Assembly (NCBI GenBank): GCA_016699385.1
Contig: CP064974.1
Span: forward strand, 890,617 to 954,616
Origin: Candidatus Moraniibacteriota bacterium
GTDB lineage: Bacteria; Patescibacteriota; Minisyncoccia; Moranbacterales; UBA1568
DNA length: 64,000 nt
Reading direction: 5' to 3'
Shown: in pieces, positions 4,883-48,529 of the stretch
Layout: each line of letters opens with the position of its first letter
Position numbering within the stretch: the first letter of the stretch is position 1
Translations under genes and position numbers: made by a program
Notes under the pieces: model-generated
What the model saw: the letters and a program-made list of their open reading frames with translations, nothing else
The model's database searches: none
What the model was told of the DNA's origin: nothing

Positions 4883-5452
4883 TCACTTCTGACACACGAG
4901 AGCATAGTGATAGTCCCCCACCAATACATCCTTGACCGGCGAAAATCCTCGTTCGGAAAGCATCTCGATAAGCTTCTCTCGCGAAATACGAAGTGATAGC
5001 TCCGGTCCAAACGACGCTTCCGTGTTATTCCACTCCATGATAAACAAAAATCCGCCCGATTTCAGTACGCGATATGCCTCCCACAGCATTGTTTCCTTGC
5101 CCTTGTTCTGAAAGAGCACATCTTTCATAATCACCCAGTCAAGGCTATCATCCGGCAATCCCGATCCACCCTCTCGTTCCAAATTCACCCGCTTTGCCGT
5201 CACATTGGACAAACCCAATGCCTTGGCGCGACTCGCAACCGCCTCCAAAGATGACGGCAAAATATCAAGTGCATATACACAGCCCGATTTCCCTACTGCC
5301 CTCGCAAACGCAAGAGAAAAGAATCCCGACCCGCACCCAAAATCCGCCACCGACGCATTTTCCAACGCATCAAGCTGTTCAATCACCTCTTCCGGCTTCA
5401 CAAAGTTATTCGTCAGCGTTGTTCCCATAAAAGAATCCCTCAATGAAGACAC
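4883..5452 (-). CDS. Class I SAM-dependent methyltransferase
   Basis: DFGCGSGFFSLAF glycine-rich SAM-binding motif; 189 aa. Confidence 0.75.
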   Translation of the reverse strand: MSSLRDSFMGTTLTNNFVKPEEVIEQLDALENASVADFGCGSGFFSLAFARAVGKSGCVYALDILPSSLEAVASRAKALGLSNVTAKRVNLEREGGSGLPDDSLDWVIMKDVLFQNKGKETMLWEAYRVLKSGGFLFIMEWNNTEASFGPELSLRISREKLIEMLSERGFSPVKDVLVGDYHYALVCQK

Positions 5453-6989: not shown

Positions 6990-7028
6990 AAGGACAAAAG
7001 AAAAAGGCTGATCTTGGTGAATCAGCCT
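6990..7028 (-). terminator. Rho-independent terminator of the 7074..7997 gene
   Basis: On the minus strand: AGGCTGATTCACCAAGATCAGCCT hairpin followed by TTTTTCTTTTG. Confidence 0.6.
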
Positions 7029-7073
7029 AATGTTGCCCTGTGTAGAGCAGAAAGTTAAACAATCTCGTGAGCA

Positions 7074-7997
7074 CTATTCTTTCATCACGATGCGCTCTAC
7101 CTGTCTGCGTAGTTGGATCAACTCATGGGTAGCTGGTCCCCAATTTTGAAGGAAAAGCCTTGGATGGAATTCAAAAATGAAGGGGCATTTCGTCTCTCCC
7201 ATAATCTCAACCACACGAACAAGGAAGTTTGCAGGATCGCCTTTTAAGAAACCATCCAGTTCTTCCCGATCGTTTCTTCGCTCGGGTTGGAGTTGAACTC
7301 CGATGAACCGTGTCTTGTTCCATCTAATCCATGTCAGGATTTCTTCGGTAGTGACGCCCTCGAATTTGCGGATGTGATGAGTATCTAACATCAGCGGCAT
7401 TTTAAGGTCAATCAGATCGTTAAGTGAATCGGCATTCTTTGGCGAAGTTTCCTCTGCCGATGTGGCACTGTCCGCCAAAATTCCACGAGTATCGATTTGA
7501 AGCGCGCGAGGATAGTGACGAGACAGATACAGCAACGCCTTCCATGTTCGCTTTCTCCTTGCAGAGAAGAGAATCAAATCGAAGATAGGCCAGTAACCGT
7601 CTATTTTCATGAATATCCAGTGAAGCCGTCTCGGATTGAGATACCATGGTCCCATGCCATCCTGCGCTTTTTCATGAGGAAAGGCTGTTTCCAAAGAGAT
7701 CACCTCGACGCTTTTTGGAAGTATCCACGAAAGTATTGATACCCAAAAACAACGAGTGGGGGTGAGTTGTACGCCCATGTCGGCCCGTTTGATTCTTTGG
7801 AAAATACTCCAATAGCCGAAAACCGGGATGAGGAAACGAGGGAAAAAGGACAAAACAGAGATACCAACACGCGGCTGTTCGCTACTGTGGTGTTGCATCT
7901 GCAAACTCCTCTGTAACTGACGTCTAAATTTGGAAGTTACTGTGTCTCTGCAGTCAATCAGCGATACAAAGGGAATACTGACAACAGGACAATCCAT
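7074..7997 (-). CDS. Hypothetical protein (possibly membrane-associated at the N-terminus)
   Basis: 307-aa ORF followed by a clean terminator. No family recognised by eye. Compositionally similar to 6037..6501. Confidence 0.5.
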   Translation of the reverse strand: MDCPVVSIPFVSLIDCRDTVTSKFRRQLQRSLQMQHHSSEQPRVGISVLSFFPRFLIPVFGYWSIFQRIKRADMGVQLTPTRCFWVSILSWILPKSVEVISLETAFPHEKAQDGMGPWYLNPRRLHWIFMKIDGYWPIFDLILFSARRKRTWKALLYLSRHYPRALQIDTRGILADSATSAEETSPKNADSLNDLIDLKMPLMLDTHHIRKFEGVTTEEILTWIRWNKTRFIGVQLQPERRNDREELDGFLKGDPANFLVRVVEIMGETKCPFIFEFHPRLFLQNWGPATHELIQLRRQVERIVMKE

Positions 7998-8499
7998 TTG
8001 AACATAATTTTAGATCCGTGTCAATGATAGCATATGCATATGTTTTTTCAAAAATTTACCGTACGATCATAGGTACTTGGTGGAGTACTGGATATTGAAG
8101 CACATACGTTCTCACTTCGTCCCACCCCTTCCGCCAATAGCAGATAGCACGAGATTTAAGTTTATGGATGCCTCTAAAAGAAGAAGGGGTCAAACACTAT
8201 CAATGCGGTGGGTGTTTTTTTGTTGCTTTGCCTGATACGTTTTCCAGCGATGCAGCACTGATTAAGAAATCATTAACGAAGTAAGATTTTTGAAAAATAA
8301 AATTGAAAAGTTTGTATACATCTCCTGACGCAATGTATACAAACACATATACTTTGTATACCTTACAGTAAAGATGCCAGCAAACTATGCAAAATATTAA
8401 AATTGGCAAAAATATAGAACAAAAAGAGGGCTTCAAAGCATTTACTCTCAATCCCTTTCCAACAAGAGAAAGTTTTATTTTTGAGCCAAAAATCTTGAA

Positions 8500-9309
8500 A
8501 TGATTAAACCTCATAAACCAATCGACGAAGAAGAATACAAGAATCACCCAGTTTTCTCCAAATTGGATGAAATATTGATTTTCTATAAAATGCTATCATT
8601 TTCAGTATTTGGCCTCTTAAAACAAGGGGCTGGAGCGACTTGCAATTTCAATATCGATTCATACCTTTATTCCTCAGTCCAAGGAACAATAGAATCTATA
8701 AAATACATACTTAAAAAAGGCCGAATTAACGATGCCTATGCTCTACTTAGAAAATACTACGATTCATCAATTATTAACGTTTATTCCAATTTATATCTAG
8801 CCGATAATTTTACCTTAGAAAATTTTGTTGTAGAAAAAATTGATAATTGGTTGAAAGGAAAAGAAAAACTGCCCGAATATAGAATCATGTCTCAATATAT
8901 CCAAGGGTCAGAAAAACTCCGTAAGATAAATGAAGTGCTATACAGGGATGATCGATATAAAGAAATTCGAGATCGGTGTAATGATCATGCACATTACAAT
9001 TTTTATCAGAATGTCCTACTTAACGACAACGAGATATACCTGGAAAACAACATAGAAGCACTAAGTGTTTTTTTAAACGATATCGAACAACTTTTCATTC
9101 TGCATTTAGCATATATATTTTATCTCAATGGGCACTACATGATGTCTAGCGATTACACAGACTGCTTAGATATTGGTATAACTCCTCCAGAAGAATCTCA
9201 GTATTACGTTGCTCCATTTGTACAGAAAGCTTTTGATGATTTTATAAAAGAAAAAAGATTAGATTTAGCCGAAACTATAAGATTAAGTACAGAAATGAAG
9301 TTAACATAG
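8500..9309 (+). CDS. Hypothetical protein in a strongly AT-rich islet; possible HEPN-like R-x5-H motif (RDRCNDH)
   Basis: 269-aa ORF with markedly lower GC than its surroundings. Rich in N/K/Y/I. The motif is only suggestive. Confidence 0.5.
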   Translation: MIKPHKPIDEEEYKNHPVFSKLDEILIFYKMLSFSVFGLLKQGAGATCNFNIDSYLYSSVQGTIESIKYILKKGRINDAYALLRKYYDSSIINVYSNLYLADNFTLENFVVEKIDNWLKGKEKLPEYRIMSQYIQGSEKLRKINEVLYRDDRYKEIRDRCNDHAHYNFYQNVLLNDNEIYLENNIEALSVFLNDIEQLFILHLAYIFYLNGHYMMSSDYTDCLDIGITPPEESQYYVAPFVQKAFDDFIKEKRLDLAETIRLSTEMKLT

Positions 9310-9592
9310 GTGTTTTGAGCTACAGGCATTCACCTATTTAATTCTCCTCTGCTCTTCGCCTAAAACGGAAAACAGAATCGGATTTTTCCTTTGTAAGGAT
9401 AATTTCTTTCAGAAATCAAAGGAAAACATGTACATCATATAACATGGCGTACCTAGTTACGGCTTTTACATAAAAGCTTCCACCTATATTTACCTCCACT
9501 ACACCACGGCAAACATCAAATATGCCGATACGTTATACAAAATTCTGCCCTGCTTGTAGAATATATTCATCATTTAAATTTAAGAAACGTTT

Positions 9593-9883
9593 ATGAAATA
9601 CGGACAATTCACAACTTTCCAGACTGCAGATGGAAAGGTCGAGGAACTGAGAAACATTCTTCTGCAAGCTTCCAAAGAGATGTGCGTTACCAAAAGCTGT
9701 CAGCAATACACAATCGGTAGCGACAAGGAAGCCGCGAATACTCTTCACGTATTCGAAGTATGGGAAACCAAGGAAGATCATGATTCATCTCTGAATTCAG
9801 AAGAAGCCAAAGAACTCATCAGCAAAGCAATGCCACTTTTAGCAGGCAGACCTCAAAGCGTAGCAATGGAAATAAGCGAGTAG
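9593..9883 (+). CDS. Antibiotic-biosynthesis-monooxygenase (ABM/Dabb) domain protein
   Basis: 96 aa. Pattern LHVFEVWETKEDHD...HL is typical of ABM ferredoxin-like fold proteins. Confidence 0.6.
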   Translation: MKYGQFTTFQTADGKVEELRNILLQASKEMCVTKSCQQYTIGSDKEAANTLHVFEVWETKEDHDSSLNSEEAKELISKAMPLLAGRPQSVAMEISE

Positions 9884-9983
9884 AGGCAAAACATCGCCTA
9901 ACAGCATATAAACAACTCGTTCCGTTTGCTCAAATTGACTCATAGTTCCCCTCAGGATATTCTACCGCTGGTCATCTTCATTT

Positions 9984-10922
9984 ATGCACAAACGTTATGA
10001 AGCCCCGCTTCGCGCGTGCGTCGGTCATAAAAATCCCGTTATGCTCCCCTACAAACACGAATACGACGCCTTTGGATCACATTGGGAAATCACGGTGTGG
10101 GACGCGATTTCAGAACAGGATTTCAGAACGATGACACAAGAAATACTTAGAAGATCAGATCAATTCGAACAATATTTCTCTCGTTTCATCCCGACGTCAC
10201 TCGTCTCGCGCATCGCGACCGAGAAGCAGACAGGCGCTCTCGAAGTGCCCGCTGACTTCACAGCAATGCTTCGTCCCTACATACACCTCTATGAGGCGAC
10301 AGCAGGGAAAATCACGCCCCTCGTCGGACACACCCTCTCCGATCTCGGCTACGATGCCGACTACTCACTCACGCCAAGAGAGATCATCCGGCTCTCCCCT
10401 GATCTCTTGGAAACGGTCACCATCCTCGACGACACGAGCATTTCTCTCAAGTGCCCCGTCCTCTTTGACTTCGGCGCGATTGGCAAGGGCTACTTCTGCG
10501 ATCGTATTGCGGACTTCTTGCGTGAGGAACACGTCGAACAATTCCTTGTCAATGGAAGCGGCGACATCGTCTATGAAAGCACTGGCATGCCGATACAGGT
10601 CGGGATCGAGCATCCGGGCGACGCAACCAAAGTCGTCGGATCAGTCGAAATGACCCGAGGCGCCCTGTGTGCAAGTGGCACCAATCGCCGCCGCTGGCGA
10701 AATCATCACCACATCATCGACCCTGACACCACCGAGTCCCCCGAGCAATTCCTCGCTACCTGGGTCATCGCCGAAAATGCCGCGCTCGCCGATATCCTTG
10801 CAACCGCCCTCTTCCTCGCCAAGCCAGACGCCCTCCGAAAGGTCTATCCCTTCGAATACGCCACACTCGACACAGACCTCACCCTCCGCCAATCCCCAGA
10901 CTTCCAAGCAGCAACATACTGA
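9984..10922 (+). CDS. apbE: FAD:protein FMN transferase (ApbE family)
   Basis: GAIGKGY and HHIIDP motifs. 312 aa with an alternative start at 10041 (MLPYKH). No obvious signal peptide. Confidence 0.8.
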   Translation: MHKRYEAPLRACVGHKNPVMLPYKHEYDAFGSHWEITVWDAISEQDFRTMTQEILRRSDQFEQYFSRFIPTSLVSRIATEKQTGALEVPADFTAMLRPYIHLYEATAGKITPLVGHTLSDLGYDADYSLTPREIIRLSPDLLETVTILDDTSISLKCPVLFDFGAIGKGYFCDRIADFLREEHVEQFLVNGSGDIVYESTGMPIQVGIEHPGDATKVVGSVEMTRGALCASGTNRRRWRNHHHIIDPDTTESPEQFLATWVIAENAALADILATALFLAKPDALRKVYPFEYATLDTDLTLRQSPDFQAATY

Positions 10923-11765: not shown

Positions 11766-12335
11766 ATGGATAGCACAGCCTTTCTGTTGACTCCCAACAT
11801 ATTGCTCGGAGGAGTCGTATTTGTGGGAATTCTCTGCATTGCACAGTTTTTCCTCATTAGGAAGCTTTTTCGCAAGGCGAGTCAATTCGAGGAACGACAA
11901 AAGATGTTTCTCAAAGGAAAGCGTGGCGCCGACCTCGAAGCCGTCATCTTGCGACACGACCAAGAAGTCGGCAATCTCGACACCGAGATTCAGGAGCTCT
12001 TTGCTATCACCGAAAACATCCGAGCACTCGCTACCATCGGCATACACAAAGTCGGCATCGTCCGCTTTAACCCCTTCCAAGATACCGGAAGCAACCAAAG
12101 CTGGAGTATCGCCCTCCTCGACGGAAATACGACAGGCATCGTCATCTCTTCCCTCCTCTCCCGAGAATCGGCACGCGTCTACGCAAAGCCCGTTGTACAC
12201 GGACAAGCAAAAGACTTCCCCTTCACCGCCGAAGAAAAACACGCCATCGAACTCGCGCAAACATCCAGAGATTCCAAGAAAACTACCCTACCTCTAGCAG
12301 AAACCCCCTCAAAGTCTCAAAGTAGGGCAGATTGA
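11766..12335 (+). CDS. Hypothetical N-terminally TM-anchored protein (DUF4446-like?)
   Basis: 189 aa with an N-terminal TM helix and a central conserved-looking region IVRFNPFQDTGSNQSWSIALLDGNTTGIVISSL. Confidence 0.5.
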   Translation: MDSTAFLLTPNILLGGVVFVGILCIAQFFLIRKLFRKASQFEERQKMFLKGKRGADLEAVILRHDQEVGNLDTEIQELFAITENIRALATIGIHKVGIVRFNPFQDTGSNQSWSIALLDGNTTGIVISSLLSRESARVYAKPVVHGQAKDFPFTAEEKHAIELAQTSRDSKKTTLPLAETPSKSQSRAD

Positions 12336-38093: not shown

Positions 38094-38672
38094 TTATCTT
38101 AGACACTCCTCGACCAATTCCGAAAACTCCCCTGTTTTCATATCTTTGAGGCAGAAATGTCCGTAGCTGTGAAACTCTTTATAATCAATACCCTTAACCT
38201 TGTCTCGAATAATTTGAACTGATTTATGAATAGTAATATCATCATTGTCCGAATTGAATAGAGTGACACCCTCCGTACGTTCAACTAGTCCCCGGTCTAT
38301 CTCAAACTCAAAGAAATCAGCCGTGTCATAAATAGGATTATTTTCAGGATTGAGCCAAGGTGCAACCAAAACAACCTTACTAACTTTTTTATCTCTATTC
38401 TCACTCAACCAACGAATCAAAAAACCACCTCCGCAACTATGGCCAACTAAGACTGTCTCTGGCGTGATATCAAACCTTTCAAACTCTTTCTTCCAAGTAT
38501 CATAACGAGGCCTCCAAGGTTCTGGCAGCTCAATTGCTACTGCAAACACATCATTAATTTGAAGTTGCTTTGATAACCAAGGAAACCAGTGATTATTACT
38601 ATTCGTTGGACACTTTGGGTCGTAATATTCCTCTTTATCTGGTCTGCCTGGAACTAAAATCGCATTCTTCAT
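38094..38672 (-). CDS. Alpha/beta-hydrolase-fold serine hydrolase (RBBP9/YdeN-like)
   Basis: GHSCGG nucleophile elbow; 192 aa. Low-GC gene. Confidence 0.7.
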   Translation of the reverse strand: MKNAILVPGRPDKEEYYDPKCPTNSNNHWFPWLSKQLQINDVFAVAIELPEPWRPRYDTWKKEFERFDITPETVLVGHSCGGGFLIRWLSENRDKKVSKVVLVAPWLNPENNPIYDTADFFEFEIDRGLVERTEGVTLFNSDNDDITIHKSVQIIRDKVKGIDYKEFHSYGHFCLKDMKTGEFSELVEECLR

Positions 38673-38699
38673 ATTTCGAAATTCTCTCGTTATACCACG

Positions 38700-38772
38700 T
38701 GGACCGTAGGAGAATCGAACTCCTTACCTCTTCCATGCCATGGAAGCGCTCTACCAAATGAGCTAACGGCCC
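38700..38772 (-). tRNA. tRNA-Ala (anticodon GGC)
   Basis: Reverse complement GGGCCGTTAGCTCATTTGGTAGAGCGCTTCCATGGCATGGAAGAGGTAAGGAGTTCGATTCTCCTACGGTCCA. G3:U70 Ala identity pair. Anticodon loop ATGGCAT. Confidence 0.8.
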
Positions 38773-38949
38773 AAACAAACATTTTTCAGGGGATATCCAC
38801 AACTTTTCCACAGAAATCCCATGGTACATCGTAAGATATCGTATCATGTTTCCCTGCTTCGTCAAATAAATACCCAAGAAATACCATAATACTCGCACAA
38901 TCCACAATTGATCTTTATTCCACAGTGTGAAGCAAAAACAAAATTCCAT

Positions 38950-41150
38950 AGATATTGTTCCACATGTTCCACAGCACTCGAACAAAATGTCTATTTTAAA
39001 TGGGCTATCATATCCTAGCGCTTTCACGAAAAATACGCATCGAATGCTCCCCATGAAACAAAATACTACAGCACAAAAAAATGTTTCACAAGAAACATAG
39101 ATTCTTCAAGTACTCCTTCTTCAGCTCTCACAGATATCAAGAACTCATACAAAAAAATCAGAAATGCCCCACCATTAGCAGCCCTGATACACATAAGATT
39201 TGTCTCTACTTCTTCCCATAAAGCTACTTCAATCCTATACATTGTTCCACACGAAACACAATATCGATCGCTATGAAAATAACACATGTGCTTCACGTGG
39301 AACAACATCGTTATTCTCCGATGCCTAAGGAATCTATGTTCCATATGAAACACCACTCAATTCCCTTAAAAATGATTCCGAAAAATGTACAACTAAGAAT
39401 ATTCACAAGGAAAACATATCAGGAGGAAAACAACTCTCCACCGCTATTGGACTAATCAATGTTCCACGTGAAAGAAACAAATATCAAATAATGATTCCTA
39501 GACGTACAAAAGTGTGTTCCACGTGGAAAATATTATCAAGTTCATGTTCATACCGACCCTGATTGCAAAGGCACATTCAGTACTGATTATTCCTGCGATA
39601 GAAAATTATTGTTCCACATGGAAACTTACTTCCGAGACACGCGGCAACTCACACAAAAATGTGTTCCATGTGAAACATAAGAACCACCAATCCACACTGG
39701 ACCAAAAAGAACCACATGAAAGCTAAGAAGAAGATTCATAAAGAAAGCATAGAGATACACCTATAAAGAATGACGAAAAGGAAACCCTTTTCATCAAGAG
39801 ATGCCCTCACCAAAAACAACAAGAAAACGATTGTTTCACGTGGAATATATTTTCAATACATATGAGTTTCACGTGGAACAATTCCAATCATTTAAAGAAA
39901 ATAAACTTGTTGCACGTGAAACGACTAGTAAACAGCAAAGACCTGTTTTTGATACAAGTAGCCACAATTGTTCAGCCGTAAATATCACCTTCTAGGGGCG
40001 CTCGCTACTCATCCAGAAGATATCCTCCTATGCCCGCAATACCCTAAATACCATACTATTACGAAATTGTGGTAAGTGAAATGTTCCACAGAGAACATCA
40101 TGCAAAAAATAACAGAAACAGAAAGTTCCACATGGAACAATACGAAAAACAGATCGAATGAGAACATCAATAAAGAATACTCTTCATAAAGAGAGTCCTC
40201 AGAGAAAACGTAGGGGATATGCAATTTTTCTCTACTCAGAAAAAATCCGAGAAACATAAAAAATACTATTCCACATGGAACAACTCATCGATTCATTTTT
40301 CCTAGCAAACAAACGAGCGATATTTTTAGCAAAATTACCACTAATTATACAAAGGGTATCTCTTCTTAAAATTGGAGTGATTGTTCTACGTGAAACAGAT
40401 ACTCCAAGAAATTCATTAAGAAATGTTTTTTAGAAAGTAGAATGTTCCACAAAGAACATCATTCTCACAACAATCGTTCGGATGAGCGCGTTACTTTTGG
40501 TATATCTACTATGAAAAGGGCTTTCTTTGTGAAACAAAATAAGATATCTAGCATTGTTCCATGTGAAACAATTCTAGAGAGACTAAATATCAATATTGTG
40601 ACATCTAACTCGGAATCCTACCGAAATCCTAAGTGCAGCACTGAAAGAAAATCTCTGTCCGTCTAGAAGATTCACCTATTTTTTATTCCACTCTTCTTTA
40701 AAAACTCAATAGCCTTATCTAAAGACTCTGCATGTTCCATGTGGAACTTTACACTAAAATGTAAAGTGTTCCAGAAAAACTTCAAAGATATCATAGAACA
40801 AGGAGAAAACCTTTCAAAAAGCATCTTTTGCTGCAAGATTTCCAAATTTTGAGAAAAATTCTAAAAACGAGTCTACCTGTATCGCTGCGTGGAACATTGC
40901 AGACGGGAAAGACAACCAAAAAAGATATCCTGACGAAATACACATATCTTGCCTGCAAACAGGCAAGCAAATTTTGAAAATCAAAGCAAAGCATGAAGCT
41001 ATCGGACGAACTCTAAATGCCTTAGATTTCCGTTCCAACTTCAACATTTTCCAAACAATGCTTGCCCTACAAAAAAGCCTCAACATTGTTTAGACAGACT
41101 ATGAAAACGCACAAACCTTAATTAAGAGAAGCATGCGTTCCATAATCGCT
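38950..41150. repeat. Dense array of about 18 parS-like 16-bp palindromes (TGTTCCACGTGGAACA and variants) in a 2.3 kb ORF-free AT-rich region; candidate centromere / ParB-loading region
   Basis: Copies centred near 39251, 39300, 39345, 39467, 39523, 39618, 39670, 39838, 39874, 39915, 40090, 40130, 40275, 40389, 40451, 40562, 40738. At least 8 are within 0-2 mismatches of the canonical parS TGTTNCACGTGAAACA, e.g. TGTTCCACGTGAAAGA, TGTTCCATGTGAAACA (x2), TGTTCTACGTGAAACA, TGTTGCACGTGAAACG, AGTTTCACGTGGAACA. Spacing is irregular (35-176 bp). Flanked by divergent genes. Confidence 0.75.
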
Positions 41151-41390
41151 GTTGATATTCCTTTCAAACAAAAATCTATCGAAAAATATATTCGCTGTAG
41201 ATACCTTCCTCTATTTAAAGAAAAAATCAAAAAGTGGAAGAAAAGAAAATGGCGTCATTTATAAAGGGTATCGTTATTCTCGTTACAAACATTGAATTCA
41301 AGTTCAGGAAAAGCACTCGCATATGTTGCAAAAAAAATTATTTTAAAAAAAGTATGCTATACTATTAAAAGTATTTCGCTTCGAAACTTT

Positions 41391-42449
41391 ATGTCGCGTT
41401 TCTTTTCTTCTTTGATTCGCACAAAGAGGCTTCAGTTGCCTACTTTTGTATTTTTTGCACTCATTTTTACAAGCTTTGGATTCTTTTCTCTTGCTTCCGA
41501 AAACTTTTCTGGAAAAAACATTTTTCAAGATGCTGACCAGGACGGACTGACAAATGAAGAAGAACAACTATACGGTACAGACCCACAAAAAGCAGACACT
41601 GATGGAGACGGCTACAGTGATGGAGCAGAGGTGCGAAGCGGATATGACCCGCTCAAACCGTCACCAGGAGACAAAATACTCCCCCCAAAAAAACCGGCAG
41701 AAACACAGAAAACTCCCCCACAAAAAGACACAGCTACCTCGGGGACTCCCTCACAGGAAACACCCGATGTTGGAGGATCCAATGAAGACAACCTAACAAC
41801 ACAGGTTTCACAGCAGATTGCAGACATTCTCAAGAGTTCGTCCGAAGATAGCTCAGGAAAGGCAGTCTCAGTGCAAGACATGCAAGACAGTCTCCAGAGT
41901 CTCCTCAGCGAACACGGCACTGACACCGTTAAACTTCCCGAAATCGATGAGTCTGAAATAAAAATACTGAAACAAAATTACAAAGACCTCTCAGATGAGG
42001 ATCGGAAAGCAAAGATTAAGCAAGACACGCTTGAATACGTCACCAAGGTGTCCTATATCTTAGCAAGCAACTCACCAGAAATCATCACAAAACCCGAAGA
42101 CATGGAGAATATGGCAACAACGATAATGACGAGCGCCATGACTTCGATAGAAAGTGGGAATGCAACATACCTGAAAGATTTGAGCGAGAAAGGCAAAAAA
42201 GCGCTTGTTGAATTACAAGATGTTGAAGTGCCAGAAAATATGCTCGAATCACACAAAAAAGCCCTACAGCTCTTCCAGTATGCGTCATCACTCCCGGATG
42301 AACTAACATCATTTGAAACAGATCCGCTCGCGAATGTTGTTGTCCTCTCCAAAATGCAAGGCTTGCTCAGTTCTCTTTCGAGTTTTGTCAGCAATATTGA
42401 TTCAACCCTGAAAGAAATTGGGATCGAAGAGATTCCAGTCAATCTGTGA
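41391..42449 (+). CDS. Secreted protein with thrombospondin-type-3-like Ca-binding Asp-rich repeats
   Basis: Start MSRFF... with signal peptide FVFFALIFTSFGFFSLASE. DADQDGLTNEEEQ and DTDGDGYSDGAE repeats. The ORF could start at 41292. Confidence 0.6.
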   Translation: MSRFFSSLIRTKRLQLPTFVFFALIFTSFGFFSLASENFSGKNIFQDADQDGLTNEEEQLYGTDPQKADTDGDGYSDGAEVRSGYDPLKPSPGDKILPPKKPAETQKTPPQKDTATSGTPSQETPDVGGSNEDNLTTQVSQQIADILKSSSEDSSGKAVSVQDMQDSLQSLLSEHGTDTVKLPEIDESEIKILKQNYKDLSDEDRKAKIKQDTLEYVTKVSYILASNSPEIITKPEDMENMATTIMTSAMTSIESGNATYLKDLSEKGKKALVELQDVEVPENMLESHKKALQLFQYASSLPDELTSFETDPLANVVVLSKMQGLLSSLSSFVSNIDSTLKEIGIEEIPVNL

Positions 42450-43620
42450 CGAGACGTTGTTTGAAAATTTCCAAGTCAGCTCTGGTCATGATTCATTCCG
42501 TGTGAACAAAACAAAATACAAAACATCATACTTCCAATACCTCCAAAAGGGGTTGTTTGTCGTGGCGATTCTTTTCTTTGGAATTTTCTCAACCACGCCA
42601 GCTCGAGCTGGGTACTGGGGAGAGCCGACGGCGGCGAATATGATGCTCTTCAATCTCGATCAAATCGCCGATAAGATAAAAGGCGTCACTTTGAGTGTCG
42701 TTAAAAATGCTGCCATACGAACCATCAACCAACAGGTGCTTCGACTCGTAAATGGCACTGGCGGACAAGGATCACTCATTATTTCGGATTGGAGACAATT
42801 TATCTATGTTGAATCCTCAAAAAAGGCGAGCGATGTCGTATTGAATGACTTTTTTCCAAAAATGTTTAGCGGAAAGGGATCTGGTGGAAACTATGTCGCC
42901 TCTTCCGAAGGGGTAAATACGGTAAAGAATCTTTCTTCATCGGTTAATACGATTAAAAACTATCCCGAATATCTCTCGACCATCGGAAAAAACACCCTGA
43001 AAAATCTTCAAACAGACGCGACAAAATACACGCTCGACCAGGTTTGTCCAGATCCATCCGGATCACTCGCTAAGGGAGACTATCGCTGCTTTTCAGAGAT
43101 TATGAAGCCACAAAACAATCCCCGCGGAATACCACTTCTCACGGAACAGAAATATGCCGAGGAAAATGCAAAAAACCAAGCTGTCGCACAAACACAAGCA
43201 GGAATAACAGGCTACAAACCGCAAACAAATGCCCAAGGCCTTGTCGTCACGCCGCCGCAAACCATCTCAGATATCGTCTCAGCTGTTCAAACCCTTCCAG
43301 CAAAAGCCCTTGCCATTGCTCAAAACCCTTCGGAACTTATAACGGGAGTCATTCAAACATACGTAAATTCACTCATTCAACAAACACTGAGCAAAGTAGG
43401 GCTCGGACCCGTTGGAGCAAGCTTTGCGCAAAATCTTGGAGGCGAACTCTCAAGAGAGTCCGACGCTCTCATTTCAGAGAACGTTGGCGCCATGTTTAAC
43501 ACGGATGGCTCAGGCACAGACATCGTAGGACCCAACAATGTCGGTCAGCAAGCGACGAGCTCACCAGCAACCGCATCATCCGAAAACAACTGCGGCACAA
43601 ACTGCCGTATGATAAACTAG
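42418..43620 (+). CDS. Hypothetical secreted/membrane-anchored protein
   Basis: 400-aa ORF with a hydrophobic segment LFVVAILFFGIFSTTPARA about 45 aa in. The true start is probably internal or non-ATG. Overlaps the upstream gene by 32 nt. Confidence 0.5.
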   Translation: MGSKRFQSICDETLFENFQVSSGHDSFRVNKTKYKTSYFQYLQKGLFVVAILFFGIFSTTPARAGYWGEPTAANMMLFNLDQIADKIKGVTLSVVKNAAIRTINQQVLRLVNGTGGQGSLIISDWRQFIYVESSKKASDVVLNDFFPKMFSGKGSGGNYVASSEGVNTVKNLSSSVNTIKNYPEYLSTIGKNTLKNLQTDATKYTLDQVCPDPSGSLAKGDYRCFSEIMKPQNNPRGIPLLTEQKYAEENAKNQAVAQTQAGITGYKPQTNAQGLVVTPPQTISDIVSAVQTLPAKALAIAQNPSELITGVIQTYVNSLIQQTLSKVGLGPVGASFAQNLGGELSRESDALISENVGAMFNTDGSGTDIVGPNNVGQQATSSPATASSENNCGTNCRMIN

Positions 43621-43886
43621 TACCACAACCACTCTATCGAACGAAAAACTTCCTAACGTAAGGGAAGTTTTTTCATATATACAAAGGGTTGACCCTATTC
43701 ACGAATAAATAACCTAAAAATATCCTCTCTGTGTATGCGTGTGGAGACACAGGGGAAGCAATTATTTCCAATTCTCTGTTTCGCAGAGACAAACTCCCTC
43801 ATGATGATATAAAAAGAGCCCATATTACTACGAAAAAATCCCAGCAATAGAATATTGTTGGGACAAAAAAGGGATATTTCCTTTTG

Positions 43887-43960
43887 TGGGTCTGTCCAGA
43901 CTCGAACTGGAGACCTCTACAATGTCAATGTAGCGCTCTAACCAACTGAGCTACAGACCC
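43887..43960 (-). tRNA. tRNA-Val (anticodon GAC)
   Basis: Reverse complement GGGTCTGTAGCTCAGTTGGTTAGAGCGCTACATTGACATTGTAGAGGTCTCCAGTTCGAGTCTGGACAGACCCA. Anticodon loop TTGACAT. Confidence 0.85.
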
Positions 43961-43976
43961 CACAGATACCTCGCAT

Positions 43977-44975
43977 CTACGCCTTATCCAGGCTCACAGC
44001 ACTTTCTTGTTGTAGCATGGTTTCTGATTTTTGCAAAACAGGCTCTGGATCCTTTGGGAGGGCAATCATGCGAAAAAATGAGGTCCATGATGTCCACGTC
44101 CACGCTTCGAGTAAAGAAAGTACTCCGAGCATGCCTATCCACTCGACAATCGTCCCATATACAAGAACTGCCGGAGAAACATTTGTTTCGAAGAAATTCC
44201 ATACAAGGGAAAAGCTCATTGAAAAAAATGAAAGGGTAAGAAATTCTATACAAAATAGCGCAACAGTCAAAAGAAATGTCTCTCGCATATGAAGACGAAA
44301 AAGTCGGGAAGCGTTTTCGAGAGCTGATCGTACAGAAATTTTCGAAAGAGAGAGATAGAGAGCAGCGTATTGACGAAGAAAGAACAGTAAAAGGGAGATA
44401 GAGAGAAGGAGTCCAAGCGCCGAATAGGACAATGCGCGCGAAAGACTCGCGAGTCCGCGGGAAAGCGCTATGTCTGCCGGTACCGAAAGAATACTCCCAA
44501 CAATCACAACAAATGCAATAAGAAGGATTTCAAGTATCACGAGATTCTTCGTCTGATGTCGCACGACTCTTCGAAGAGCAGAGAAGGAAGGGGTTTCGCC
44601 GCTTTCATGCCGATTCATCAAAAATACGAGTGCAACAATGCCGAATGAACTTACGATAAGTGCTATGCCTGCAAGAAGCAGAAAAAGTATCACTCCCCAA
44701 GGAAAGAGAACTCCTCCCTTGCTTTGCAGCCACGAAAACATATCTCCAAACTCCGCACCGCCCAATACAAAAAACTGTATCAGTCCTTTCGGTATGGCAA
44801 TAGCGGCGCCAAAGACGGCAAATACCGGACTGGAAAATACCGCTCGGAAGCCATTCTTGAGTGGAACACGAATATCTATACGCTTGTTCATAACACGATA
44901 AAAATATTCCTCTGAATTTTCCTTCAGAAATAAAGAACTTGCGAGAATCAAGCCTTCAAGAACACGGGCGATCAA
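43977..44975 (-). CDS. Hypothetical polytopic membrane protein
   Basis: Multiple TM helices. Possible start MNKRIDIRV at 44891. Confidence 0.55.
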   Translation of the reverse strand: MIARVLEGLILASSLFLKENSEEYFYRVMNKRIDIRVPLKNGFRAVFSSPVFAVFGAAIAIPKGLIQFFVLGGAEFGDMFSWLQSKGGVLFPWGVILFLLLAGIALIVSSFGIVALVFLMNRHESGETPSFSALRRVVRHQTKNLVILEILLIAFVVIVGSILSVPADIALSRGLASLSRALSYSALGLLLSISLLLFFLRQYAALYLSLSKISVRSALENASRLFRLHMRETFLLTVALFCIEFLTLSFFSMSFSLVWNFFETNVSPAVLVYGTIVEWIGMLGVLSLLEAWTWTSWTSFFRMIALPKDPEPVLQKSETMLQQESAVSLDKA

Positions 44976-45013
44976 CGAAACCTCGCAGCTATAAAGCAGT
45001 CAGCCAAGTCTTT

Positions 45014-46888
45014 CTATTTCTTCACTCCCTCTTCCTGAGGAGATGCCGACACTATCGCTTCTCCGCGAACCAGGGCAGCGAATTCATCTTTCTCGAGAGT
45101 TTCCTTTTCGAGGAGTGTCCTGGCAATACGATTCAATGTATCGCGCTTTTCGGTCAGAATATTCGTCGCCTGTGCAAAGGCGTCACCAACCAATCGAGAA
45201 ACTTCAGCATCAATCGCCTCGGCGGTTTTCTCCGAATAATTGCGTTCTTCATGCATTTCGCGACCCAGAAATATCATCTCATCCTTCTTGCCAAATGTGC
45301 GCGGACCAAGGGTGCTCATACCGAAGCGCGTCACAATATTGCGCGCCATTTGCGTTGCACGTTCAAGATCACTTGATGGACCAGTCGTCACATCACCAAA
45401 AACCAGCTTTTCACTTGCATAACCACCAAGAAATGTCGCCAGTTCATCTCTGAAGTGACTAAATGACTGGAGCGTCTTGTCTTCGGTCGGGACAGCAAGT
45501 GTATACCCACCCGCATGTCCGCGAGAAATAATGGAAACTTTGTGGACAGGATCAGCGTGAGGGAGGCTCGCCGCAACCAAAGCATGTCCGCCTTCATGAT
45601 ACGCGATGATTTCTTTTTCCTTTGGATTGATGGCGCGACTCCGTCGTTCAGGTCCCAAAATTACCTTTTCAATCGATTCGGCAAGCTCTACAGCTCCGAT
45701 TTCCTTCTTGTCCCGCCTCGCGGAGAGAATAGCCGCTTCGTTTACAAGATTGGAGAGGTCAGCACCAGAAAAGCCGGGGGTACGCTCAGCGATAGTACGC
45801 AGGCGAACTTTTTCTTCCACTGGCTTGTTTTTGACGTGAATATCGAGTATCGCTTCACGCTCATTAATGTCCGGGAGGTCCATCATAACCCGACGATCAA
45901 AGCGACCTGGACGAAGGAGCGCTGGATCAAGGACATCCGGGCGATTGGTTGAGGCAATGACAATAACATTTGTTTCTGTTTCAAAGCCATCCATCTCAAC
46001 GAGAATCTGATTGAGCGTCTGCTCACGCTCATCATGTCCGCCACCCAAACCAGCACCGCGATGTCGACCAACCGCGTCTATCTCATCGATAAACACGATG
46101 GCTGGCGCGTTCTTCTTCGCCTGTTTGAAAAGATCACGGACACGACTTGCTCCTACACCAACAAACATCTCCACAAATTCCGAGCCGCTAATATTGAAGA
46201 AGGGAACTTTTGCCTCGCCAGCAACCGCTTTTGCCATCAAGGTCTTCCCAGTTCCGGGAGAACCCAGAAGAAGCACCCCTTTCGGAATACGTGCCCCAAT
46301 TGCGAGAAATTTCTTAGGATGCTTCAAAAATTCAACGACTTCCTGAAGCTCATTCTTTGCCTCTACCGCGCCAGCAACATCAGCAAAGGTGACGCGTTTT
46401 TTCTTGTTCTTGGGATCGAGCATACGCGCACGGCTCATGCCAAAAGAAAGCGCTTGAGCATTGCCCCGCTGTGCCTGCTTCATCATAAACCAAATAAAAC
46501 CAGCGATCAGGAAAAATGGCAAAAGAAAAGGAAGGATGGCGCCAAGCCACAGCGTCGCACCCGAATCCTCCTTAACGGTTATCTTCACGTCTTTCAATTT
46601 GTCTGTATCAACGCCATAATTGCGAAGCGTTTCCGTGAGCGATCCTTCGGTCTCTTTGGTCGCCTTTTGTTTATCGCCGCCTTTGAGCTCTATAGCAAGA
46701 GAATTCCCACTCACGTCTACCGTAGATACTTTTGCATCGTTTATTTCGGATACCAGCTCGTTGAGGGAAATGTCTGCGGGACGCCCCTTGGGAGACTGAT
46801 AGAGAATAATAATGCCGGAAACAAAAAGGAAAGTAATAACAATAGCACCGATATTTTTGAAAAGCTTGTTCATGAACGTAGATTGCAC
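45014..46888 (-). CDS. ftsH: ATP-dependent zinc metalloprotease FtsH
   Basis: Two N-terminal TM helices, AAA Walker [12 protein letters not shown] region and Zn motif HEGGHAL; 624 aa. Confidence 0.95.
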
Positions 46889-46983
46889 GAATTATTATTT
46901 CGGACACACTTAATTGCGTGCCACTCAAGGAAAACACCCTTAGCAACGGGGTATTTGGCAAAGAAACTTTGCACACACCTGTC

Positions 46984-48030
46984 CTACTTTTTCTCAAGAA
47001 GTACAGACACCTTAGCACCTCTTCGAGTGAATTTCAAGCCGTGAAAGGACTTTTCCGCCATTTTGTTCTTCGTACTTGCGATGAATTTCCGAATTTCTTC
47101 AATCACTGAAAAAGAAGGGGGAAACTCACATACACCACTAACTTCCTCGATAAATGCTCGCAGAAACGCCCTTTGGGATGCAATGGAAAGCATTCCAAAA
47201 GCCGATGCATCGAGAACAAAGGCTCTGTTTTCATCATTCTTTTGAAGAACTCCTGATTGATTGAGACTCGTTGTGAGCACATCCGCATCATCCGCAAGTG
47301 ACAGTGCTGATCGGGCAAGTGTCGATCGAATATTTGGATTGAAAGTTTCAAGGAGAGGCAGAAGTTCGTGCCGAATACGATTGCGAGTGAAACGCGAATC
47401 AGTATTGCTTTGATCGATGCGAAAGGGAAGGGACTTTTCTTCAAGATAGCGGAGAATATCTGATTTTGTCACAAAAAGAAACGGCCGAATAACAACACCT
47501 TCTCGAAAACGCATCGCTCCCAGACCACGAAGCCCTGCACCACGAAGAAGCCTTAGGAGCACCGTCTCCGCTTGATCATCTTGCGTGTGCGCGACGGCAA
47601 TAGCGTCAAAACCAAGCTGTATCCGAAGTGTTTCAAAAAATTCATACCGAATCGTTCGCAGACGTGCTTCAAGATTACTCGTATCGCTCGAAACTTCTGG
47701 ATGAAGCACAGTAAGTGGGATGCCGTAAAAATCAGCACGTTCTCGAACAAGCTTTTCATCTGCATCGGATTCTTCACCACGAAGCGAATAATTCACATGA
47801 GCAATATGAAGCCTCCACTCGTATTTCTTTCCGAGAAGAACCAAGCAATCGAGCAAGCACATACTGTCCGGACCGCCAGACACAGCAACCACAAAAGCGT
47901 CTCTGCGTTTCCAGAGCGCGAAGTGATGAGCTGTATTCTGAATATTTTTCAAAAAAGACGACATTTCAAACATGCTTCTGGATGATGTCAAGGGTTTGCT
48001 GGACAGCATCATCGAGTCGTCCTTCTCCAT
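46984..48030 (-). CDS. tilS: tRNA(Ile)-lysidine synthetase
   Basis: PP-loop VAVSGGPDSMCLL. The true start is probably internal (e.g. MFEMSS at 47973), which would remove the overlap with gmk. Confidence 0.8.
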   Translation of the reverse strand: MEKDDSMMLSSKPLTSSRSMFEMSSFLKNIQNTAHHFALWKRRDAFVVAVSGGPDSMCLLDCLVLLGKKYEWRLHIAHVNYSLRGEESDADEKLVRERADFYGIPLTVLHPEVSSDTSNLEARLRTIRYEFFETLRIQLGFDAIAVAHTQDDQAETVLLRLLRGAGLRGLGAMRFREGVVIRPFLFVTKSDILRYLEEKSLPFRIDQSNTDSRFTRNRIRHELLPLLETFNPNIRSTLARSALSLADDADVLTTSLNQSGVLQKNDENRAFVLDASAFGMLSIASQRAFLRAFIEEVSGVCEFPPSFSVIEEIRKFIASTKNKMAEKSFHGLKFTRRGAKVSVLLEKK

Positions 48031-48529
48031 TCACGACTGTGTAGTCGTAAATATCGGTATGCCGGAGCCACTCGCGCGTATAGTCCATGCGCTCGGCAAT
48101 ATAGGCATCGGTCACATGTGGATCACGGCGACGAATACGCGCCTCGAGAATATCGAGCGATGGCACCGTGACAAAAATAGCGACAATATCAGGAAAGAGC
48201 TTCTTGGCAGCGATGACGCCTTTCCATTCTATCTTCCAAATACCAATCTTGCCGGAATTCCGCACGCGTTCAATTTCGTCAAAGGTGACGCCGTAGAGAT
48301 TGCCATTGTATTGGCGCGTGTATTCGAGAAATCTCTGCTCCCGAATACCCGCTTCAAACGCGTCTTCGGAAAGAAAATAGTAGGGATTTCCCTCGGATTC
48401 ACCCGCTCGAGGAGCACGCGCCGTCGTCGTAATAACACGCTCAATGGAAAGCTTGATTTCCAATCGAGAAATAATAGAATCTTCCCCAGCGCCGGACGGC
48501 CCGGAAACAATAAAAAGTTTCGATTTCAT
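47966..48529 (-). CDS. gmk: Guanylate kinase
   Basis: Start MKSKLF. P-loop SGPSGAGE(D) variant. Typical gmk length and fold pattern. Confidence 0.75.
   Translation of the reverse strand: MKSKLFIVSGPSGAGEDSIISRLEIKLSIERVITTTARAPRAGESEGNPYYFLSEDAFEAGIREQRFLEYTRQYNGNLYGVTFDEIERVRNSGKIGIWKIEWKGVIAAKKLFPDIVAIFVTVPSLDILEARIRRRDPHVTDAYIAERMDYTREWLRHTDIYDYTVVNGEGRLDDAVQQTLDIIQKHV

Follow-up and report, generated by a model that had tools for sequence, protein, structure and literature searches.

A gene-free array of about 20 parS-type sites as the probable chromosomal centromere of a Candidatus Moraniibacteriota bacterium

Described parS clusters and the array in the window

The parS cluster of Myxococcus xanthus is the closest described case to the element analyzed here, a dense array of parS-like sites in 64 kb of contig CP064974.1 (this whole stretch is referred to as the window) from a Candidatus Moraniibacteriota bacterium, a member of the Candidate Phyla Radiation (CPR; Patescibacteria). 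In M. xanthus, 22 parS sites lie in 3 kb, ∼4 kb from parA and ∼35 kb from the replication origin (oriC), and ParB shifts a fragment of the cluster in vitro (PMC3899335); counts of 22 to 24 sites in about 3 kb have been given (Iniesta 2014, PMC3899335; Harms et al. 2013, PMC3778016). Typical chromosomal sets, according to Livny et al. 2007 as summarized in PMC3899335, comprise 1 to 10 parS sites spread over tens to hundreds of kb that are often intragenic. The cytidine triphosphate (CTP)-dependent loading of clamps at parS and the targeting of SMC to ParB/parS are described in outline in PMC8494293, PMC8367383 and PMC4785775, and ParB of Pseudomonas aeruginosa binds half-parS sites (PMC5961200, PMC10419367). 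We found no paper in the literature on parS in CPR/Patescibacteria. Here, we describe an interval of the window that, judging from its sites and their conservation in relatives, is probably the chromosomal centromere of this bacterium, i.e., a gene-free stretch dedicated to about 20 parS-type sites.

The array resembles the M. xanthus cluster (consensus TGTTCCACGTGGAACG) in that many canonical 16-bp parS copies are packed into a few kb at one chromosomal locus; a further likeness may be that the M. xanthus cluster is origin-proximal, ∼35 kb away, and not at oriC. The two differ in that ∼4 kb separate the M. xanthus cluster from parAB downstream of it whereas there is no parAB within tens of kb here, and in that the array of the window is bounded by a tRNA-Ala gene and a secreted-protein gene, belongs to a genome of ∼1 Mb (judged from the complete genomes of relatives) and contains imperfect sites only. 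With typical chromosomal parS sets, such as those of B. subtilis, Caulobacter and Pseudomonas, the array shares the consensus and, presumably, the roles in ParB-CTP clamp formation and with ParA and SMC; unlike in those sets, all detectable sites are in one dedicated non-coding array. The sopC locus of the F plasmid consists of identical 43-bp units in true tandem repetition, with a 16-bp inverted repeat that is bound by a ParB-family protein. The window array shares with sopC the multiple closely spaced 16-bp inverted repeats; however, it has unique, irregular spacers and a chromosomal location with housekeeping flanks. Finally, the array is rich in GTTCCAC/GTTTCAC heptamers that, by analogy with the half-parS sites bound in P. 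aeruginosa, could retain ParB, except that half-sites in Pseudomonas occur genome-wide while here they are halves of clustered degenerate full sites. As a kind of element, the chromosomal parS cluster is already known, dense clusters have a precedent, and we do not describe a new kind of system. What is new is that a CPR phylum has a conserved non-coding array dedicated to parS, which occurs at two positions, is detached from parAB and, in one subclade, consists of imperfect sites only.

The array lies inside a non-coding gap between a tRNA-Ala gene on the minus strand and a gene for a secreted TSP3-repeat protein on the plus strand. It comprises 20 parS-like 16-mers with at most three mismatches to the symmetric consensus TGTTNCACGTGNAACA, and these span ∼1.8 kb. 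The features are as follows, with mismatches counted against TGTTNCACGTGNAACA and the strand given for genes.

38699-38772, minus strand: tRNA-Ala(ggc), left boundary of the array, conserved in all relatives
38773-41390: non-coding interval, 2,618 bp, GC content about 0.36-0.38
38956-40748: parS-like array, 20 sites with ≤3 mismatches to TGTTNCACGTGNAACA
38956-38971: site TGTTCCACATGTTCCA, 3 mismatches; in fact two tandem half-sites TGTTCCACA
39045-39060: site TGCTCCCCATGAAACA, 3 mismatches
39082-39097: site TGTTTCACAAGAAACA, 2 mismatches
39243-39258: site TGTTCCACACGAAACA, 2 mismatches
39289-39304: site TGCTTCACGTGGAACA, 1 mismatch
39337-39352: site TGTTCCATATGAAACA, 2 mismatches
39460-39475: site TGTTCCACGTGAAAGA, 1 mismatch
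39515-39530: site TGTTCCACGTGGAAAA, 1 mismatch
39610-39625: site TGTTCCACATGGAAAC, 3 mismatches
39662-39677: site TGTTCCATGTGAAACA, 1 mismatch
39832-39847: site TGTTTCACGTGGAATA, 1 mismatch
39865-39880: site AGTTTCACGTGGAACA, 1 mismatch
39908-39923: site TGTTGCACGTGAAACG, 1 mismatch
40082-40097: site TGTTCCACAGAGAACA, 3 mismatches; initially annotated as an 18-bp palindrome; paralogous to the copy at 40443
40124-40139: site AGTTCCACATGGAACA, 2 mismatches
40267-40282: site TATTCCACATGGAACA, 2 mismatches
40382-40397: site TGTTCTACGTGAAACA, 1 mismatch
40443-40458: site TGTTCCACAAAGAACA, 3 mismatches; initially annotated as an 18-bp palindrome
40555-40570: second copy of site TGTTCCATGTGAAACA, 1 mismatch
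40733-40748: site TGTTCCATGTGGAACT, 2 mismatches
41391-42449, plus strand: secreted bacterial TSP3-repeat protein, conserved right neighbor of the array, located downstream of the dnaA block in the sister lineage

By calculation, ∼0.1 sites of this quality are expected by chance in 2.6 kb. Fifteen of the 20 sites have at most two mismatches and nine have at most one, while none is perfect (mean, 1.8 mismatches), and the nine best sites are confined to 1.28 kb (39289-40570). A scan of the window for TGTTCCACGTGGAACA with ≤2 mismatches returned 11 matches, all within 39289-40748, compared to 0.00 expected from shuffles; with the canonical consensus TGTTNCACGTGAAACA, 12 sites in the window have ≤2 mismatches and none is perfect. 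The remaining 61 kb contain only three sites, each with three mismatches, versus ∼2.4 expected by chance. The initial annotation had reported about 18 parS-like palindromes and at least eight near-perfect sites within ∼1.3 kb, and both statements hold. It had also placed the array in a 2.3-kb region at 38950-41150, which includes the array but misjudges its end, as the last site ends at 40748 and genes are absent from 38773 to 41390. Similarly, variants of its 16-bp palindrome TGTTCCACGTGGAACA are abundant, but the exact sequence has no copy in the 64 kb, each array copy deviating at one or more positions. The 18-bp palindromes that had been proposed as a second site class are parS copies in which the outer arms TGTTC...GAACA are intact and the inner right half is mutated; those at 40082 and 40443 are paralogous and share 46 nt of flank. 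Moreover, the density of the array had been called exceptional, which is overstated given the 22 parS sites in 3 kb of M. xanthus (PMC3899335) and the dense arrays in other metagenomic lineages.

Across the 20 sites, the column consensus is TGTTCCAC(G/A)TG(G/A)AACA, with ≥80% conservation at all columns other than 5, 9 and 12. The central CpG is lost in about half of the sites (A at position 9 in 10 of 20, T at position 8 in 4 of 20), and this excess of plus-strand G-to-A changes (10/20) over C-to-T changes (4/20) agrees with the A-/C-rich replication skew of the strand. Sites are spaced by 33 to 178 bp, and the spacers are unique and irregular. GTTCCAC/GTTTCAC heptamers number 21 in the 2.6-kb interval, i.e., ∼8 per kb versus ∼0.3 per kb outside. 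As initially annotated, the region is AT-rich (GC content 0.36-0.38 versus about 0.47-0.50 in the flanks), is essentially devoid of open reading frames (ORFs) and has divergent flanks, with tRNA-Ala and a hydrolase gene on the minus strand to the left and the TSP3 gene starting at 41391 on the plus strand to the right. No ORF in the interval exceeds 96 amino acids, Pfam gives no above-threshold match for the longest small ORFs, and tblastx of the interval against relatives detected no conservation other than ∼100 nt beside tRNA-Ala; a coding region or pseudogene is rejected on these grounds. A structured RNA is also rejected, as Rfam searches of the interval region returned only tRNA and sub-threshold chance matches. 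Likewise, Tandem Repeats Finder detected no array-wide period, its sole repeat being 2 × 9 bp of TGTTCCACA at 38956-38973, which rules out a tandem repeat or plasmid-style iteron. The iterated plasmid-style centromere to which the array had been likened would have a tandem unit; here there is none, the spacers are unique and the housekeeping flanks are conserved.

In a comparison with the same-species contig L001, no single-nucleotide polymorphism (SNP) was found over 38478-40978, which includes the whole array, and one was found in 40978-41477; this comparison is uninformative on constraint. Over the 13.7 kb shared with L001 (99.0% identical), 109 of 134 SNPs fall within 46978-48478, spanning tilS and the start of the next gene, and the remaining ∼12 kb have only 25. 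The SNP-dense tract looks like a recombination tract.

Conservation of the array in related genomes

Relatives were retrieved with FtsH of the window, which identifies metagenome-assembled genomes of Candidatus Moraniibacteriota/Moranbacteria at 70-95% identity. In 19 related GTDB species genomes, a parS array of 5 to 22 sites over 0.5-2.4 kb occupies the syntenic position, at a distance of 3.5-6 kb from ftsH, downstream of which it lies, and of 100-300 bp from tRNA-Ala(ggc), which it precedes. The shared order is ftsH, a membrane protein gene, tRNA-Val(gac), two opposite-strand genes for secreted/membrane proteins, the array, tRNA-Ala(ggc), tRNA-Arg(cct) and rbfA. No array is present near ftsH in four loci in which FtsH is ∼70% identical. 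Further genes of the window that are relevant here and below are the following.

11766-12335, plus strand: DUF4446 gene, adjoining infB
38094-38672, minus strand: Ser_hydrolase (alpha/beta hydrolase) gene, between tRNA-Ala and tRNA-Arg
42562-43620, plus strand: conserved secreted/membrane protein, function not known, always paired with the TSP3 gene
45014-46888, minus strand: ftsH, the query for relatives

Arrays of distant relatives consist mostly of perfect sites, and their spacers are unique sequence, including in L021. Many of them are perfect throughout, including the following four.

L021: 12 of 12 sites perfect, TGTTCCACGTGGAACA
L038: 10 of 10 sites perfect, TGTTCCACGTGGAACA
L033: 9 of 9 sites perfect, TGTTCCACGTGGAACA
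L029: 8 of 8 sites perfect, TGTTTCACGTGAAACA

By contrast, the subclade formed by the window, L005, L007 and L008 has zero to one perfect site per array and a mean of 1.6-2.3 mismatches. The arrays of this subclade are also longer, with a median spacing of 77-218 bp versus about 51-64 bp for the majority of tighter arrays. The window and L005 each keep 20 sites and L008 keeps 17 (mean, 1.6-2.1 mismatches), while L007 has merely seven recognizable sites in sequence of 23% GC content.

Identity to the window at four-fold degenerate sites of ftsH amounts to 41% for L005, the nearest species, and to 27-36% for the others; at such values, neutral sites are saturated. Apart from the motif, no alignment is possible between the array regions of the window and of L005, L007 or L008. 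The combination of saturated synonymous sites and unalignable spacers argues that the motif itself is under selection. Moreover, an unconstrained 16-mer would reach ∼8 mismatches while the sites of the window have ∼2, which indicates that the motif is being maintained in the window's lineage and that the array is not merely a fossil there. We read the imperfect sites as the probable outcome of mutation pressure to which many redundant sites are exposed while selection on each is weak; alternatively, the ParB may have relaxed specificity. The initial annotation had proposed a centromere or ParB-loading hub and had named conservation in related genomes as a check. Syntenic arrays were found in the 19 species genomes, and because syntenic conservation is the behavior expected of such a hub, this proposal gains support.

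Several additional observations were made in the relatives. In the arrays of L011-L045, L153 and L211, the center-to-center spacing peaks at 50-65 bp; 10.5-bp phasing of the spacing is weak (R = 0.16, n = 161, non-independent data), and we draw no claim from it. Seven of about 21 contigs of relatives (L011, L017, L019, L020, L024, L027 and L061) end within ∼0.5 kb of the array or tRNA-Ala, which suggests assembly breaks caused by strain heterogeneity in the array or by repeats. Relative to L007, L008 and most others, the window and L005 have an inversion of the segment from tRNA-Ala through the array to ftsH (38700-48000 in the window); the signs of this inversion are that the GC-skew sign relative to ftsH is opposite and that UbiA is on the ftsH side in the window and on the array side in L008. 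The tRNA-Ala and tRNA-Arg genes are usually adjacent (8-250 bp apart) in the relatives examined, while in the window the Ser_hydrolase gene separates them and looks like a lineage-specific insertion beside the array. The three conserved neighboring ORFs encode membrane/secreted proteins, and a local binding protein is rejected on this basis. The gene content of the window is otherwise typical of CPR, with type IV secretion system (T4SS) pilins, TSP3 repeats, many proteins without a family and 13 tRNAs. A second stretch of low GC content (0.35-0.40) at 7000-10000 contains ORFs without a family match, and a contig of another strain has a large serine recombinase gene (L086:259-1998) beside a methyltransferase gene matching 4883-5452 of the window.

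The array and the replication origin

A metagenome scan for two perfect parS sites 15-45 bp apart yielded at least 120 loci. Among the matches listed, most have two to four sites just upstream of parA-parB or near dnaA, and six have at least seven sites; dense arrays thus occur in several lineages, yet as a minority. Seven to 10 parS sites within about 0.3-0.9 kb are found in unrelated metagenomic lineages of higher GC content (L168:280-1146, L182:3977-4327, L123:854-1080 and L193:761-1038), immediately upstream of parA-parB in L168 and L182. One of the six loci with at least seven sites, L153, contains 15 perfect sites and is assigned to Moranbacteria because its DnaA is 81% identical to an NCBI protein with this label. 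L153 and three further loci have 4 to 15 perfect parS sites in non-coding DNA 0.4-1.4 kb upstream of dnaA. These sister-lineage arrays are at L153:1044-2027, L211:8794-9137, L220:9041-9649 and L221:8243-8559. In L153, L211 and L221, the array is followed by dnaA, dnaN, dciA, UbiA, TSP3 and a gene for a protein of roughly 300 amino acids, while the contig of L220 stops at dnaA; a gene for a CCA-adding enzyme is found on the opposite side. Where both flanks are long, namely in L211 and L221, the GC skew flips from about -0.2 to +0.2 at the array. Thus, in this sister lineage of Moranbacteria, the array is at oriC.

The UbiA, TSP3, roughly 300- to 400-amino-acid protein and CCA genes of the sister lineage are homologues of genes in the window. 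The arrays of the two lineages share the phylum, the motif, the non-coding context and the neighborhood of the TSP3 pair, UbiA and the CCA-adding enzyme; in contrast to the perfect arrays at dnaA-dnaN, the window array is detached from dnaA, off the skew switch and degenerate. In the window's lineage, the array still adjoins the TSP3 pair while the block from dnaA to UbiA is no longer in between. The array appears to have become separated from dnaA in the window's clade.

In the window's lineage, the array does not represent a replication origin. Each 2-kb segment of the 64 kb has a negative GC skew, the cumulative skew falls monotonically, and there is no change of skew sign across the array in any of 19 related loci. 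Matches to the DnaA box TTATCCACA with ≤1 mismatch number 11 in the window versus 12.4 expected, and only those at 38793 and 38804 are near the array, so that the DnaA-box-like 9-mers noted initially are not enriched. Pfam scans of about 55 ORFs of the window and tblastn searches that used Spo0J, Soj and DnaA as queries detected none of dnaA, dnaN, parA and parB, and there is no skew switch in the window either. The window reaches 39 kb to the left and 23 kb to the right of the array without dnaA or dnaN, and these genes were also not found in ∼10-kb extensions based on same-species contigs (left) and a same-clade relative (right). The left extension contains T4SS pilin genes, nusA and tig. 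To the right of the window, only short contigs are available, and the same-clade relative has uvrD, xerC, LysM-CHAP and T4SS genes, with no dnaA. An oriC at the array, as had been suggested initially, is rejected on the basis of the one-sign skew, the unenriched DnaA boxes and the absence of dnaA/dnaN from the window and these extensions.

A lead to the position of the origin comes from L008, a member of the same subclade (FtsH 90% identical), in which the UbiA homologue is on the same contig, 24 kb beyond the array. After UbiA come uvrD, xerC, a LysM-CHAP gene, an intergenic local skew minimum and T4SS genes, and these T4SS genes are also found beside the dnaA block in L221. The weak local GC-skew minimum (L218:4361-5293, at about 108-109 kb of the L008 contig JBPOHW010000007.1) lies between LysM-CHAP and T4SS genes (TrbL, PrgI, TraC), ∼31 kb from the L008 array, and has one perfect DnaA box at 5173. 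No dnaA is present at this minimum, with 4.4 kb of sequence beyond it. In the window, the minimum would map 4-5 kb past the right end, which fits the uniformly negative skew. It is a possible oriC of the window's clade, i.e., a lead rather than a result, and the array of this clade is perhaps 30 kb from this weak candidate origin. The initial suggestion that the array is possibly origin-proximal thus receives tentative support from the sister array at dnaA and the skew switch and from the L008 minimum at ∼31 kb; the 64 kb themselves contain no skew switch.

Interpretation of the array and its meaning for CPR bacteria

In line with what is established for ParABS systems, we suggest that ParB dimers recognize the 16-bp palindromes of the array, close at parS as CTP-dependent sliding clamps and spread onto the flanking DNA, and that the resulting partition complex would be moved by ParA and could load SMC. 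Many sites within 1-2 kb would multiply the loading rate at one locus. We infer ParB binding and everything downstream of it from the sites, assuming a cognate ParB. The array of the window would be part of a feature common to the phylum that is at dnaA and the skew switch in one lineage and, in the window's, near ftsH and upstream of tRNA-Ala, at a distance from any skew switch. The imperfect but maintained sites of the subclade could reflect weak selection on each redundant site or a ParB with relaxed specificity, and half-site binding may be a way for damaged sites to retain ParB.

Several observations weigh against a centromere. Pfam and tblastn searches found no ParB or ParA in the window or in any fetched locus of Moranbacteria, and the same tblastn queries found no ParAB in any CPR locus fetched. 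The Spo0J, Soj and DnaA queries are valid because ParAB and DnaA were recovered with them in dozens of other loci. DUF4446 is directly downstream of parB in L133 and L190, which belong to other phyla, and 1.3 kb downstream in L149, while in Moranbacteria (the window, L214 and L216) it is beside infB without parB nearby. In addition, none of the 20 sites in the window is perfect and half lack the central CG.

A first alternative explanation is that the array is a decaying relic, which served as centromere while beside dnaA and is now unused because ParB was lost or better sites exist elsewhere, so that the imperfect sites are mutational debris. The few perfect sites in the window, L005, L007 and L008 compared to the mostly perfect arrays of distant relatives, the decay of the central CpG to TpG/CpA in about half of the sites with a strand asymmetry matching the replication skew, and the reduction of L007 to seven sites in AT-rich DNA are what such decay would leave. 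However, with neutral positions saturated and spacers unalignable, unselected 16-mers would carry ∼8 mismatches rather than ∼2, and three independently diverged genomes hold 17 to 20 sites at the same place; we consider a relic improbable. Alternatively, the sites could bind another dimeric DNA-binding protein, such as a Noc- or KorB-like ParB paralogue or a transcription factor, that controls tRNA-Ala/tRNA-Arg or the TSP3 operon. The constant position of the array, immediately preceding both tRNA-Ala and the divergent TSP3 gene, would fit such a regulator, as would the lack of ParB in the window and the fetched loci of Moranbacteria. Yet the relatives carry exact canonical parS and not the Noc site, 5 to 22 copies over 0.5-2.4 kb are unlike an operator, and the array of the sister lineage precedes dnaA instead of tRNA-Ala, so that the partner changes while the array persists. 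This makes regulation by another protein very improbable.

Even less probable is an oriC in which the TCCAC-containing repeats serve as DnaA boxes in an AT-rich gap between diverging genes. Two one-mismatch DnaA boxes at the edge of the gap and the sister-lineage array at dnaA and the skew switch fit this idea, but the skew and the DnaA-box count of the window, the unchanged skew sign in the 19 related loci and the lack of dnaA/dnaN on either side of the array are contrary to it. The array could also belong to another repeat family, i.e., miniature inverted-repeat transposable elements (MITE) or repetitive extragenic palindromes (REP), a clustered regularly interspaced short palindromic repeat (CRISPR)-like array or an array of the TIGR (tandem interspaced guide RNA) type. 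In some relatives, short palindromes alternate with unique spacers of ∼40-50 bp (e.g., L025, with a spacing of 60-69 bp), as in a guide array. CRISPR arrays have repeats of ≥23 nt and are accompanied by cas genes, whereas the repeat here is 16 bp, with no cas or Nop-domain gene nearby and no Rfam match. TIGR arrays, which go with a Nop-domain Tas protein, have dual-repeat units of 36 nt with repeats of 8-12 nt and spacers of 9 nt (PMC12045711), and both kinds of guide array are ruled out by unit size and the absence of associated genes. Dense copies scattered elsewhere, which the initial annotation had named as the mark of a MITE or REP family, are absent from the other 61 kb of the window and from ∼45 kb of additional same-species/same-clade sequence, and the position of the array is fixed and syntenic across species. 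We regard any such family as extremely improbable.

Returning to the centromere, a more specific proposal can be formulated for the subclade. Its centromere may have become uncoupled from dnaA/oriC and from parAB, and may work as a collective of ∼20 defective sites by weak or half-site contacts or by a relaxed ParB, thereby marking the ancestral oriC flank that was left when the dnaA-to-UbiA block moved. We offer this proposal tentatively and consider it more doubtful than likely.

The chromosome biology of CPR/Patescibacteria, which are ultra-small and for the most part uncultured, is essentially unstudied, and the array would provide a first look at a CPR centromere. A lineage-conserved parS array in genomes of ∼1 Mb predicts that these bacteria use canonical ParABS. 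For genome assembly, the array is a recognizable landmark by which CPR genomes may be oriented and checked. Finally, the occurrence of the array at dnaA in one lineage and about 30 kb off in another, together with a subclade in which sites are imperfect only, would constitute a natural experiment on the limits of centromere distance and of parS degeneracy.

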